Positions 22,546 through 36,404 of a DNA stretch of 64,000 nt are shown piece after piece (within the stretch, counting starts at the first letter, position 1; every line of letters starts with the position of its first letter). The DNA is taken from NCBI GenBank assembly GCA_030770535.1, contig JASVEC010000011.1, positions 1,054,001 to 1,118,000 on the forward strand, in the 5' to 3' direction. This stretch comes from Batkoa obscura (lineage: Eukaryota). A program made the position numbers and the translations under genes. The notes below the pieces were generated by a model, which searched no databases, was not told where the DNA came from, and worked only from the letters and a program-made list of their open reading frames with translations.

Positions 22546-23835
22546 TCAAAATAAATAAAAATTAGAAAAAGGAAGAATCTTTGAGAGTACGTCAATATCA
22601 GATCTATTGACAGCTAAATAATCAATTAGAAAAAGTGTAGAATAAGTCATAATGGTCAAATAAGTTTCATCAGTTATAGTTAATTGTCCATGTTTAAACT
22701 TCACTTGAGTAACATTAGGGAACAGCCTTAATGCATTAAACAGTACTTCAATACTTAAATAACACTCTTTAAATACTAATTTAGTGATAGAAGAGTTTAT
22801 TATATTACTTATCTCATTTTCACTATCAAAACAAGGCACTATTGTAGACTGATTTTCATCACTTTGATCACTATAAAAAACGATTGTTGAAACTGTTTTA
22901 AACTTTGTTAGTCTTAACATCACATCTTCTAGCTCATTGTTGAGCTTAATATACACTTTATTCAAATGAGACATTGAACTAACAGTTATACCATCAATTA
23001 ACTTTAAATCAATAAACCCCAAATTCTGGAACTTAAAATGATTTTCACTGCTAATGCAATCCAATATAGTTAACTTTTTAAATGGAACTTTTAATGTAAT
23101 CAAATTATTTAAATCACCAAAATATTGTAACCTAAACATTCTACTAAAATTTCCATCAAGTACAAGCTTCTTTAAATTAGTAAATGACTTGGTTTTATTA
23201 AAATTATATGGAATTACAAATCTAGTACATGCCAAATATAAGGCAGCTAGATTCTGGAAGTTTTTTTGTAGTATTTCCAAACCAAACAAATTGATGGCAA
23301 AGCCTTGAATCTTTAATTTCTTTAATCTATTAGGGTTGAGGTATTCAGTTACAATAGAAATGGGTATCAACCCATTTACTTTTAAATCAAACTCTTCCAC
23401 TTGGAATAAGATGCTAGCAAAATTCAAGATGGTAGCTTTATATTTTTCATCGATTACAAAGGTTAGTTTTTTTAAGGATTCAAAAGAAGCAGAATGAAAT
23501 ATTGTTCTTGAAAATGGATCATTTGAATTAAAATAAATAATGAAATTGGAGATATTAGTATATAAGTTCAAATCAAGCCCATGATTGCTCTTTATTATCA
23601 GCCTCTTTATTTTGTTTGGATACTCTTTTATTATCTTATTATGATCTTCCACTCGCTTTTTACTTGGTATATAGTTATAATGTAATGAGTTTCTAAATAG
23701 AATACCATCTATTATTTTATAGATTGTTTTGTTAAGAGTCATAAGGTTGGATAACTCATTTAGATCTATACATAAAAACATCTCTTCTAGTAAAACACCT
23801 GGTAAGTCATCTAGCTTTAGCTTGCTTTGATTCAT
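22546..23835 (-). CDS. F-box protein with LRR-like C-terminus, intronless
   Basis: LDDLPGVLLEEMFLCID..L..L..LNK F-box followed by LxxLxL repeats. Confidence 0.75.
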   Translation of the reverse strand: MNQSKLKLDDLPGVLLEEMFLCIDLNELSNLMTLNKTIYKIIDGILFRNSLHYNYIPSKKRVEDHNKIIKEYPNKIKRLIIKSNHGLDLNLYTNISNFIIYFNSNDPFSRTIFHSASFESLKKLTFVIDEKYKATILNFASILFQVEEFDLKVNGLIPISIVTEYLNPNRLKKLKIQGFAINLFGLEILQKNFQNLAALYLACTRFVIPYNFNKTKSFTNLKKLVLDGNFSRMFRLQYFGDLNNLITLKVPFKKLTILDCISSENHFKFQNLGFIDLKLIDGITVSSMSHLNKVYIKLNNELEDVMLRLTKFKTVSTIVFYSDQSDENQSTIVPCFDSENEISNIINSSITKLVFKECYLSIEVLFNALRLFPNVTQVKFKHGQLTITDETYLTIMTYSTLFLIDYLAVNRSDIDVLSKILPFSNFYLF

Positions 23836-24023: not shown

Positions 24024-24761
24024 ATGGTGTATTTATTAAGTATAATAAATCAAGAAGGGATTGAAAGATACAACAAATTATTTCAACCAGTAATTTTCAA
24101 AAAGGCCGAGGAGTATAATCAGTTCAAGGATACTTTGTTTGATATACTATCTAATAGAGAAGAATATGAAGTAAATCTAATGTAAAATTTAGTTTATTTT
24201 TATAAATATGAATAGGGTCCTATATTTGAATTTCATAATACTGAGAATACAATCGGTATGTATATAAATATATTAAAGGTGATACTTATTATATATAGTC
24301 TATAAGAAGTTTGCTTCATTATATTTTATGGCTTATATTAATCCTAAAGAAGTAAGAGCTTTTATTTACTTTACTCAATTATTTACCTTCATAGAATGAA
24401 TTCGAAGTATCAGATATTTTAAGCCATATAATGGGTATATTATTGTTATTTTTTAAGCTCAGTTTTAAATATAAATAGAGACCTTAAGCATTTCATTTGA
24501 AAGCTTTGTAAGGAAACTTTATTAAATTAACCATTTTTCGAGCTAACTTATGTTTTTAGTGCGAGTTAGATATATCCTTTTTTGAAAAATAATTTGTTAC
24601 ATAACCATAGCAAAAAGAATATTTCCTTAACCACTATATACATTATATATCACTTAGATAAGGTAAATTTAATTATTAGTGAGTTTTTCAATATCAATGG
24701 GGAAATTCAAGCAACGGATCCTATTCAAATACTAACTTCGATTGAACAATTTGAGGAGTAA
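24024..24761 (+). CDS. AP4S1: Adaptor protein complex sigma subunit, probably AP-4 sigma (7 exons; not in ORF track)
   Basis: Exons 24024-24170, 24216-24255, 24299-24351, 24395-24434, 24479-24507, 24560-24571 and 24642-24761 give an open ~146-aa longin protein with IVYKKFASLYF, ENE and CELDIIYHLDKV..I.E...NGEI. AP sigma is well supported; the AP-4 subtype is less certain. Confidence 0.8.
24572..24641 (+). other. U12-type (minor spliceosome) AT-AC intron
   Basis: 5' end ATATCCTTT, branch TTCCTTAAC at 24623-24631, 3' end TAC; removal restores CELD|IIYHLDKV in frame. Confidence 0.93.
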
Positions 24762-25349
24762 TACAAACCCAATTATTATTTTATAAGGTAGGGTTTTTTT
24801 AGTTTAAAGGTCGATATTATAAATATTGTTATTCGCTTATAATTTTTAATGTATAGTGGATTTGAAGTTGTTTTTTGTAAAACGTTAAACATTATATTTA
24901 TAGATTTAGTTAGAGAAATGTGGTTTGTTTTTCTGTGCCTTTTTTATCTAGCCCTACATTCAACTATATGTATTTATAAAACTTGTAATTATTTCGCTCT
25001 CATGAGTCAAGGAATTAAAAGTGGGGTTTAAGAATTTGTTAGATATCAATTTTTCACTTCGTACTAGCAAATTTTAAGCTTTCTACCTCATTAAGAGATA
25101 ATTGCTGTACTTTAACGTTTTTTCATATCATTAATATTTGTTTTCTAACCATTTGCTATAGTTTTATTCATTTAGTTATATTTGTTATTTTTAACTTTAA
25201 TACAGCTTGTTAATTAACTTTCAATTTGATTTATAGTAATCATGAAGTTTTCAAATATGCTACTATTTATTTTATTTTAGAATACATCTATTTATACTGT
25301 CGTTTAAAAAACAAGCATAAGAAGATATTTTTTATGCTAATAATTTTTA

Positions 25350-26760
25350 TTATATAGGTGAAGGATAAGAAAGGAATGAAGGATGTAAATTTGGCATTTC
25401 AATTTTTTAGTCCTCTTGGTACTCTTGCTTTTCATGCTCTTGATAACCATATACTTTTATCTAGTTTATCACTGGAAATTTTTTTGAAATTATTTTCAGA
25501 TTACTAAAGGACTCCCAGCTTAAATACTTACTAGATGTTTTGAGTAATAAAGGAGCAGTAGGCTTATAGTCAAAGTTTGTATCTATGCTTGTCAAATCAA
25601 AATTTCGAAGTTTAATTACTTCAAGGTTTGGGAATAAAGATATAAAAAAAAGAGTGTTCAGTCAGCACATGAATTTCATCAATTTCAATTTGTTTTATAA
25701 AGCCATATTTAAGCGAATCATGTTTCTTGTCATGAAAACCATTTGTATTTATATTAAACCCTTTCCATATACCACTATCACTGAGATCTAAGTACTTAAA
25801 ACAAAGGATTTGGATATTTGGTAGTAAAGAGATTGAGTTTAAAAATTCTTTCAATAAACATTCATCAAGTGTTTTTTCAATAGATAATAAACCAGAAAAA
25901 TAACATTTTAACCTACGTGAATCAAAATAGCCTAAAGCTATAATATTACTATCTTTGATTAATTTCATATTCTTACTTCCATTAACAAAATATACAATAT
26001 CATAAAAGCTGTTTGATAATTTTACACTATTAATTGTTTCAACTCTCCAAGATACTCAAAAATAGACAGATTAAAGCTTCCTTTGATTACTAATTCTAAA
26101 TCGGAATTGAAATTAACATCCGGACTACTTTTAAAAAAACTACCAATATATTTCGGTACCCTCAAATCTAATTGCTTTAGTTTTTTAACTCTGTTTTAAT
26201 ACTTAATAACCCATTGAAATTTAAATAATCGCTGGAATGCAATTTCAATAACTTTATTTTATTTGGGCTTAAGTATTTAGTTAAAATTATAATATCTATG
26301 TCACTTCCATAGACTTCCAATACCTCAAGTTGATTCAAATATTTACCAACAAATCTCAGCTCTTCTTTATCATCACATATGGTCATTTTTTTATATTTGG
26401 TAAATTAATTGGTATAATGTTACCTTCATGAATATATAAATTAAAAGTTGCAAACATAATGTTTGGACAAAAATTTAAATACTCAATCTCGTTCTGATTC
26501 TTTATATTTATTTGTTTCATCAATAATCCATTTCCTTTTATAAACTTATTTCAATAATTTTTATTTGTGTCTGATTTATAAAATTCACTGTAAACTGAAT
26601 AAGTCAAATTGTGTCTAATGGCGTTGTTTGTGATATCGAATGAATATTTATTTAGTAAACGTAGTTCAAACAGCTCATATGGATCCAAAAATTTGAATAT
26701 CTTTTCCAACAAAATATCTGGTAAATAGTAGAATCGGATTGAGATCTTAGTATACTTGTA
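25350..26760 (-). pseudogene. Disrupted F-box/LRR-like gene, similar in architecture to 22546-23835
   Basis: F-box LPDILLEKIFKFLD..EL..LRLLNK, in-frame TGA at 26551, then further stops/frameshifts splitting it into three track ORFs. Ends are approximate. Confidence 0.72.
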
Positions 26761-34405: not shown

Positions 34406-35912
34406 ATATTATCCTTGAAGATTTCTCAGCCTTCGATTATTTTTGGTAATAATTTATATCTGATTTTAAGATTACTTATACATATTGCTTAGTTAAAACT
34501 ACAAGCAATATACAATCATGTAAATTTCATAAATAAACTACTATAGCTCAATAGATATTTAAGTATAAACGGTACTTTATATCAATTTCTATAACATCAA
34601 ATCACTAGTGACTTCCCAATGGCAATTCATTTTGAATAATATAGCTTTACTCCATATTTATATCTTACTTAATTAAGTGTTGGCTTCTTTTAACTAAATA
34701 TGGGGTCTAGTTTATTTTTCTTAAATTGTTCCTTTAAATTCTCGAAAAAAAGTTGTAAGTTGTAAGTTTAAAAATAAACAGTAGATTTAATTAATCTAAA
34801 CATTAAGTCTTCTCAACATTGAATAAATCAACTTTATATTCATAAAACGAAATTTACTGTGTTCAGTAGACCATTGTGAGCTTTCTATAATCCTCAGGCT
34901 TAAAGGGAAAGGAAATGCAATCCCACAAAGGTCATAACGCTATAATAATTAAATCTATTTCTTTAGAATTAGCTTAGAGCTATCATCTTAAGGGTAGGAG
35001 CAGTGTTCAATACTGAAACATCTTCAACAGGTTAAAGGTGTTACCCAATTAATGAATTAAAGCAGATCTAAAACTATTTAAGGCAAATAAAAAACTCCTA
35101 GATACCTTTATTCCACTAGTGAAATATAATGAAACTTTAATAATAGTTAGTATTTGATATAGATAGTTAAAAACAAATTAAATGAAGTAATTTTACATAA
35201 ATAGATGAAAAATTTTAATATAAATCATCACCCTGATTTTCAAAGTTTTCTTATAAAAAATATAATGAAAATGTGCCCAATAAAATATAAAATAAATTAA
35301 TACAATACAATATTATAATATTTGTTGAAAAGATATTAAGTAACTTATCAATAAGATCATAAATACAAACCACATTTAAAGATTATTTTTATTTAATGAA
35401 GATATTGTCAATTCCTGTTCACTATTCAATTATTATAAAATTATAATAAAACTGACTGGCTACTGTTTGAAACCTTTGAGTATTATATTAAAAATAAAAC
35501 TAATAATAAACGATACACCTTATATCACGAAAAAATAAAGTAAAATACAAGATTACTAAACTAGGCATTATAAAGTATATTTAACTGCTTATAATCTTGA
35601 TATTTTATTGATTTACTAAAGTAACAAAAGAATGGGCGTAAATTTATAAAACTTTTTATTCCATATTTCATCCCTTATCCGTGATACATCAAGATTGGTG
35701 TACAAAAAAGTTGTAACTTATAAGCTTGATTGTATTAAAAGCTTTGTCTCATTAGCTTCATTTGAATGAGAGTACAAGAACTGATCCGATTCAACCAAAA
35801 GTGAGATAGGATATAATTAATAAAAGTGTGTGAAACAATACTTCAAATTGGAGATATAAAAAGATAATAGAAACTCCTTTAAGAAAATAAAAAAGCATTT
35901 TTGAAGAGAATC

Positions 35913-36404
35913 ATGAAATTCATTACTTTAGTCTCTGCATCTTTTCTCTCCGTTATTATCCAACAATGCTCTGGTGCTTACTATAACCAAGAGTTATCTA
36001 ACTACAAAGATTTTGTGGATTGGAAACTTAACAAAAACGAGTATAACAAGATTGTGAGTCCTAATGCTGTAGCAAGCGGGAAACACTCTCATCCAGAAGA
36101 AATCGGGAACCTCGATGAACAAAAAGGCATAGTAGATAATGATAAATTGATTCGTAGAGGTAGCGGAATTCCGTTCGGTGGTTATATTCCAGACGAGCTC
36201 CTTGAAACTTATCCTGAATTAATTGAGTATCTTAAAGAACAAGAGGGAGTGTCATACAATGATAAATTGGTTCGAAGAGGTAGTGGGATTCCGTATGGCG
36301 GTTATTTTTCGGATGAATATTTTGAAGCTCATCCAGAGGCATTAACAAAGGCTCGTTCTTGGATGATTTCTCCTGATTCGAAATTCACATATTTAAAAGA
36401 CTAA
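35913..36404 (+). CDS. Small secreted repeat protein with RR dibasic sites (Kex2-processed repeat protein-like)
   Basis: Signal peptide MKFITLVSASFLSVIIQQCSGA; two 40-aa repeats NDKL(I/V)RRGSGIP(F/Y)GGY..DE..E..PE. Confidence 0.8.
   Translation: MKFITLVSASFLSVIIQQCSGAYYNQELSNYKDFVDWKLNKNEYNKIVSPNAVASGKHSHPEEIGNLDEQKGIVDNDKLIRRGSGIPFGGYIPDELLETYPELIEYLKEQEGVSYNDKLVRRGSGIPYGGYFSDEYFEAHPEALTKARSWMISPDSKFTYLKD

Follow-up and report, generated by a model that had tools for sequence, protein, structure and literature searches.

A spliced AT-AC intron with U12-type signals behind a 12-nt micro-exon in a probable AP-4 sigma gene of the Entomophthorales fungus Batkoa obscura

A gene for a clathrin-adaptor sigma subunit, located in a 64,000-nt stretch of the Batkoa obscura genome (hereafter the window), contains an AT-AC intron, intron 6, which follows a micro-exon of 12 nt. 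The intron carries the signals of the U12 type, it is excised exactly, forms that retain it are frequent, its removal gives a full-length sigma subunit, and four intron positions of the gene are common with an AP-4 sigma gene. The explanation that we consider probable is that of a real spliced AT-AC intron which, together with the micro-exon, was likely inherited from an ancestral AP-4 sigma gene, and which is likely removed by a minor spliceosome kept by this Entomophthorales fungus. The features of the gene are collected in Table 1.

Table 1. Features of the sigma gene in the window. P0001 is the protein matched by the gene model, L037 is a complete AP-4 sigma gene on a metagenome contig, and X1 to X6 are the runs whose contigs were used.
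Feature	Position	Strand	Remarks
Coding exon 1, ATG, codons 1-49	24024..24170	+	model matches P0001; joint 24170-24216 in X2
Intron 1, GT-AG, 45 nt, phase 0	24171..24215	+	aligns with L037 AP-4 sigma intron after codon 46
Coding exon 2	24216..24255	+	contigs and gene model
Intron 2, GT-AG, 43 nt, phase 1	24256..24298	+	absent from L037; retained in some contigs
Coding exon 3	24299..24351	+	contigs and gene model
Intron 3, GT-AG, 43 nt, phase 0	24352..24394	+	aligns with L037 intron after codon 75
Coding exon 4	24395..24434	+	contigs and gene model
Intron 4, GT-AG, 44 nt, phase 1	24435..24478	+	absent from L037
Coding exon 5 (29 nt)	24479..24507	+	contigs and gene model
Intron 5, GT-AG, 52 nt, phase 0	24508..24559	+	aligns with L037 intron after codon 98 and human AP4S1 c.295 acceptor
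Micro-exon, 12 nt, CELD, codons 105-108	24560..24571	+	contigs; found in 7 of 8 AP-4 sigma loci
Intron 6, U12-type AT-AC	24572..24641	+	70 nt, phase 0
U12 5' splice site ATATCCTTT	24572..24580	+	consensus per PMC2846911
In-frame stop on intron 6 retention	24590..24592	+	114-aa product
U12 branch motif TTCCTTAAC	24623..24631	+	candidate branch A at 24629/24630; consensus per PMC2846911
Exon 7, last coding part, stop TAA 24759-24761, 26 nt 3'UTR	24642..24787	+	contiguous contigs X2, X5, X6
3'UTR intron, GT-AG, 116 nt	24788..24903	+	joints in X1, X4

Intron 6 agrees with the published description of U12-type introns at both ends. Its 5' splice site follows the consensus RTATCCTTT, and its branch motif follows the consensus UCCUUAAC, which is described as lying near the 3' end without a pyrimidine tract (PMC2846911); the same arrangement is seen here, where 10 nt (CACTATATAC) run from the end of TTCCTTAAC to the terminal AC. 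Directly 5' of the micro-exon there is an AG. A U2-type reading of the AT-AC ends is unlikely, because known U2-type AT-AC introns carry G at position +5 (PMC2831892) and intron 6 has C. The first-pass annotation of the window had described this 70-nt segment with its U12 5' site, branch motif and micro-exon, and had given CELD-ISFFEK-stop as the product of retention; all letters and coordinates of the segment match, and the retained frame does run into a TAA at the predicted place. The exact pattern of intron 6 occurs once in the window and in none of 100 shuffles. A looser, strict U12 scan also finds it once, and is matched by 7 of 200 composition-matched simulations with introns of at most 150 nt and by 17 of 200 with introns of up to 500 nt, while a relaxed U12 scan of the window gives no excess (20 seen, 18.4 expected). 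With simulations matching the strict scan at these rates, the motif alone is only moderately unlikely and therefore suggestive, short of proof.

The RNA evidence consists of contigs from six runs belonging to three studies, each covering part of the window. No run is recorded as RNA, and the contigs were treated as spliced RNA because they are joined across GT-AG introns. The AT-AC junction is exactly spliced in three of the six runs (X1, X2 and X6), representing two of the three studies. In the contigs of X1 and X2, position 24507 is joined to 24642 with the 12 letters of the micro-exon between them, and in X6 position 24434 is joined to 24642 via 41 letters, corresponding to exon 5 (29) and the micro-exon (12). 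X3, X4 and X5 include contigs that end two letters beyond the micro-exon, at the fork of the spliced and retained paths. The only other ends that the junction allows by sliding are TA..CA and AT..AT; neither GT-AG nor GC-AG can be reached, and therefore no GT-AG reading of intron 6 is possible. The in-frame joining across 24571^24642, which had been claimed from the letters, is thus directly visible in RNA contigs, and the broader claim of a U12-type AT-AC intron among GT-AG U2-type neighbours in an early-diverging fungus agrees with both the contigs and the signals.

The letters seen at the junction are those of a second allele, with one silent change in the micro-exon. In this allele the 5' site, the branch site and the 3' end of intron 6 are unchanged, and the five inter-allele differences within the intron, a small number, all lie between the signals. 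Over 24042-25056, X1, X3 and X4 contain two versions of the gene at once, several percent apart, one resembling the window and the other Neoconidiobolus thromboides FSU 785; these could reflect heterozygosity, a hybrid, a mixture in the sample or a gene duplicated recently. Five proteins of the window that are encoded by single exons have no letter-for-letter counterpart in the protein collection, so that the window probably represents a strain or haplotype other than the annotated FSU 785.

Intron 6 is retained, with intron 5 already removed, in contigs of four of the six runs (X1, X3, X4 and X5), and in X2 and X6 its contigs are spliced only. Retained and spliced contigs have comparable depths, contig depth being no measure of levels. 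Some contigs also retain U2 introns, namely intron 2 (X1 and X4), intron 5 (X1) and the 3'UTR intron (X1). From the premature stop to the 3'UTR junction the distance is 195 nt, and from the normal stop it is 26 nt, so that under the mammalian 50-nt rule for nonsense-mediated decay only the RNA retaining intron 6 would be degraded. These distances, under a rule taken from mammals, and the distribution of retained and spliced-only contigs among the runs would fit a regulated switch, an idea of the first-pass annotation, in which retention of intron 6 sets the amount of the adaptor subunit via the premature stop and decay. Such regulation is compatible with the explanation preferred here and would add to it, and minor-intron retention is known to vary by tissue in mouse (PMC6717393). 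We nevertheless regard it as improbable, as the depths give no levels, the conditions of the runs are not on record, U2 introns of the same gene are retained too, and minor-intron splicing in Rhizophagus did not follow proliferation (PMC10639083).

After splicing, seven coding exons encode a sigma subunit of 146 aa, which is identical at 143 of 146 residues to KAI9295672.1, a 'snare-like protein' of N. thromboides FSU 785 (Entomophthorales). P0001 matches PF01217 (Clat_adaptor_s) with an E of 2e-22 over residues 1-145, which is the whole protein, and the individual exons of the gene give weak Pfam matches. The Atlas model has a TM of 0.90 to the AP sigma cluster, which names the family and not the subfamily. 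A GT at 24663, considered as the donor of a 17-nt intron, was rejected by the frame and by contiguous contigs. The genes adjoining the sigma gene are unrelated fungal genes. Opposite-strand open reading frames lie on either side, at 22546-23835 (-) and about 25300-26700 (-); one has an F-box match and the other is F-box/leucine-rich-like, without a Pfam match. A longer contig, about 24902-25200, overlaps the 3'UTR and is possibly the transcript of a convergent minus-strand gene. Elsewhere in the window, an open reading frame at 35883-36404 (-) has a start like that of a signal peptide and a pair of similar KLxRRGSGIP repeats, and resembles a repeated secreted peptide precursor.

In our view the gene, which the first-pass annotation had not identified, is probably an AP-4 sigma (AP4S1-type) gene. 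Small home-made subfamily profiles score P0001 best with AP-4, by a margin of about 10 bits (92 bits, compared with 83 for AP-3, 82 for AP-1 and 67 for AP-2). With the same profiles KAJ9086549.1 (P0014), a protein of Entomophthora muscae, gives 66 bits for AP-4 and 46, 56 and 48 bits for AP-3, AP-1 and AP-2, respectively. A full-length homologue search with P0001 returned nothing beyond P0001 itself, and a profile built from three sequences found, in addition, a Synchytrium protein and a fragment of 62 aa. For the divergent sigmas of Synchytrium microbalum (P0008) and S. endobioticum (P0158), too, the AP-4 profile gives the top score (110 and 112 bits, the others reaching at most 90), which suggests a further retention of AP-4, in chytrids, as judged from sequence. 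The E. muscae protein resembles the family as far as the residue preceding CELD, where an unrelated tail of 11 residues takes over. This is the product expected of a predictor that misses a micro-exon and a minor intron; the E. muscae gene likely holds the same pair, unannotated. It had been anticipated in the first-pass annotation that predictors limited to GT-AG introns would miss or truncate this gene. The E. muscae model, which stops just short of the micro-exon, would bear this out, whereas the public N. thromboides model already has the junction.

A further pointer to the subfamily is the layout of exons and introns. Metagenome contigs were scanned for the codons of CELD followed by a U12 donor, which gave 41 loci. 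Eight of these encode an adaptor sigma, near-duplicates included (L035/L037 and L004/L016/L022), and all eight score best against AP-4. The 12-nt micro-exon is present in seven of the eight, the intron starts with GTATCCTTT in every one, and it ends in AG in all six that have a downstream exon. The remaining 33 loci are without an adaptor-sigma match and were taken as chance; two of them, L019 and L040, are similar to true loci, without a second exon. The AP-4 sigma contig L004:111-1198 has the U12 intron and no intron before CELD, and is either part-spliced RNA that retains the minor intron or a gene that has lost the upstream intron. In the complete gene L037, phase-0 introns follow codons 46, 75, 98 and 102, and all four match introns of the window gene in alignment column and phase; the uniform-chance figure for the three shared U2 intron positions is about 1e-6. 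Of the six coding introns of the window gene, the two that L037 does not have are both of phase 1. The intron positions of AP-1, AP-2 and AP-3 sigma genes were looked at indirectly. Judged by this layout, the gene is likely AP-4 sigma.

The same U12 intron could reside in a fast-evolving AP-3 (or AP-1) sigma gene, in which case the shared intron positions would be older than the divergence of the AP complexes or be coincidental. The best PDB match of P0001 in a single-sequence search is an AP-3 sigma (68.5 bits, with AP-4 sigma at 46), the top ranks of a representative search are mostly AP-3- and AP-1-like, and AP-4 has been reported absent in Conidiobolus coronatus (PMC4022609). Two subfamily trees, of 47 and 28 rows hand-picked from about 160 proteins, bear on this placement; the AP-4 name stands on cephalopod rows only, the other groups being labelled by sequence likeness, and the L037 row of the smaller tree has one extra residue. 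P0001 and P0014 pair in both trees (94/98 and 98/98) on a long branch, and the pair falls on the AP-4 side with support of 94/89 among 47 rows and 56/22 among 28 rows. In AU tests, none of the placements as sister to AP-3, AP-1 or AP-2 is rejected (p 0.42, 0.24 and 0.23, respectively). The AP-3 sigma clade, however, is recovered at 100/99 and 100/100 with P0001 outside it in both trees, and P0001 is also outside the AP-1 clade in the 28-row tree. None of the eight loci with a U12 donor after CELD is an AP-1, AP-2 or AP-3 gene, and the mouse/human minor-intron gene list of PMC6717393 contains no Ap1s, Ap2s or Ap3s gene. Further points speak against an AP-3 host: read-through models of AP-3 break near residues 24, 55 and 115, contigs run unspliced through the GT that follows the matching DK (24663), and the window protein, at 146 aa, does not have the longer tail seen in AP-3 sigma chains of 193 aa. 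An AP-3 or AP-1 host is therefore unlikely in our judgement.

Minor introns are on record for several early-diverging fungi. Basidiobolus meristosporus has 249 (PMC10639083) or 237 (PMC11347168 and its preprint) and Rhizophagus irregularis 205, and others are reported in Neocallimastix and Rhizopus (PMC10639083, PMC11347168, PMC2846911); U11, U12 and U6atac have been reported in zoopagomycote and mucoromycote fungi (PMC11347168). Our literature search found no paper stating a spliced U12-type intron in Entomophthorales. The survey tree of PMC10639083 takes in C. coronatus, E. muscae and Entomophaga maimaiga, whose survey values we have not read, and with three species of the order in that survey we do not claim a first record. 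The searches likewise gave nothing on U12-type introns in Conidiobolus, on a minor intron in AP3S1 or a U12 AT-AC intron in any adaptor sigma subunit, and, by topic, on AP4S1 together with the minor spliceosome. In the text covered by our searches, PMC4133162 (on Lichtheimia) has nothing on Entomophthorales, and the supplement of PMC11347168 does not mention Conidiobolus. Rfam gave no matches in the 64-kb window, so that no minor snRNA lies within it.

A relic U12-type intron, inefficiently removed by the major spliceosome after loss or partial loss of the minor one, would account for the frequent retention at depths comparable to those of spliced contigs, would suit a single strict U12 intron in 64 kb and has a counterpart in the major-spliceosome splicing of minor introns discussed in PMC11347168, but it is very unlikely in view of two signals of perfect consensus, inter-allele differences (few in number) confined to the stretch between them, the C at +5 (PMC2831892) and the minor snRNAs reported in zoopagomycote and mucoromycote fungi.

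We consider instead that this organism likely has a working U11/U12/U4atac/U6atac system, as the first-pass annotation had proposed. By established U12 biology (PMC2846911), U11 and U12 would recognise ATATCCTTT and TTCCTTAAC, and U6atac, U4atac and U5 would catalyse the removal of intron 6. The 12-nt exon has a U2 acceptor on its 5' side and a U12 donor on its 3' side, and therefore both spliceosomes would have to act on it. Retention would be the outcome of slow or leaky splicing, and the retained RNA would either give a truncated product without the last 38 residues or enter nonsense-mediated decay. The AT-AC intron of the window and the GT-AG form found elsewhere would be one intron with a changed subtype, and introns are known to switch between AT-AC and GT-AG (PMC2831892).

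The contigs show directly, at the RNA level, that a U12-type intron is spliced in Entomophthorales, a sister group of the minor-intron-rich Basidiobolus. Barlow 2014 (PMC4022609) reported AP-4 sigma in R. irregularis and Batrachochytrium and no AP-4 subunit in Entomophthoromycotina, represented by one genome (C. coronatus); we found no later paper on AP-4 in this group. If the AP-4 sigma identity is true, the loss of AP-4 that was reported for the lineage needs revision. A tentative extension is that Entomophthorales keep a divergent, working AP-4 complex which surveys have missed, that the micro-exon/U12 unit has been kept from fungi to humans, and that slow minor splicing limits the supply of AP-4 sigma. 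The E. muscae model suggests part of the reason why AP-4 would have been missed, namely that the micro-exon and AT-AC intron break models of the sigma gene, and the same difficulty of annotation may conceal the fungal genes of the AP-4 partners. In mouse, minor introns are listed for three of the four AP-4 subunit genes (sigma and also Ap4m1 and Ap4e1, for mu and epsilon; PMC6717393). More generally, where similarity searches misfile a protein, its intron positions can serve to place it. The acceptor of the micro-exon/U12 unit is mutated in human spastic paraplegia 52, and the unit, if our reading is true, is conserved from fungi to humans. At 70 nt, a fungal AP4S1-type unit would make a compact reporter for the sharing of a 12-nt exon by the major and minor spliceosomes and for subtype switching.

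The closest known counterpart is vertebrate AP4S1. The minor intron of mouse Ap4s1 has the context GAT|GTATCCTTT, the branch ATTTCCTTAATG and a length of 7,653 nt (PMC6717393); its donor thus follows a GAT codon as in the window, and its branch is near-identical to that of the window. In human AP4S1 a splice acceptor lies at c.295 (PMC12110826), which corresponds to S99 of SELD in the PDB chain, directly before SELD just as the window acceptor is directly before CELD. The human U12 intron is annotated at chr14:31549791-31562112 of hg19 (PMC6800510), and from the mouse context and the metagenome loci it would follow c.306; the searched passages of PMC12110826 hold no human exon-boundary entries for c.138, c.225, c.294 or c.306. 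The window intron differs in its AT-AC subtype from those of mouse and the eight metagenome loci, which are GT-AG, and in its length of 70 nt from the mammalian introns of 7.7-12.3 kb, and the window gene has two extra phase-1 introns. Dependence on the minor spliceosome has been reported for the human gene, whose U12 intron is more retained in cells of TALS patients (a rise from 0.017 to 0.086 in lymphoblastoid lines; PMC6800510), and for zebrafish ap4s1, whose minor intron (17:28704400-28704490) responds in one of two rnpc3 mutants (PMC11347168); for the window gene it is predicted. The AT-AC introns of sodium-channel genes have the same ends and are U2-type, with G at +5, whereas intron 6 has C at this position and a U12 branch motif. 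Among fungi, the signals are of the same class as those of other minor introns in early-diverging lineages, here in a fungus of Zoopagomycota grade, and the order, Entomophthorales, differs from those of Basidiobolus, Rhizophagus, Neocallimastix and Rhizopus. The gene would keep the AP-4 small subunit as R. irregularis and Batrachochytrium do; unlike theirs, its protein has diverged so far that by simple similarity it would be taken for AP-3.
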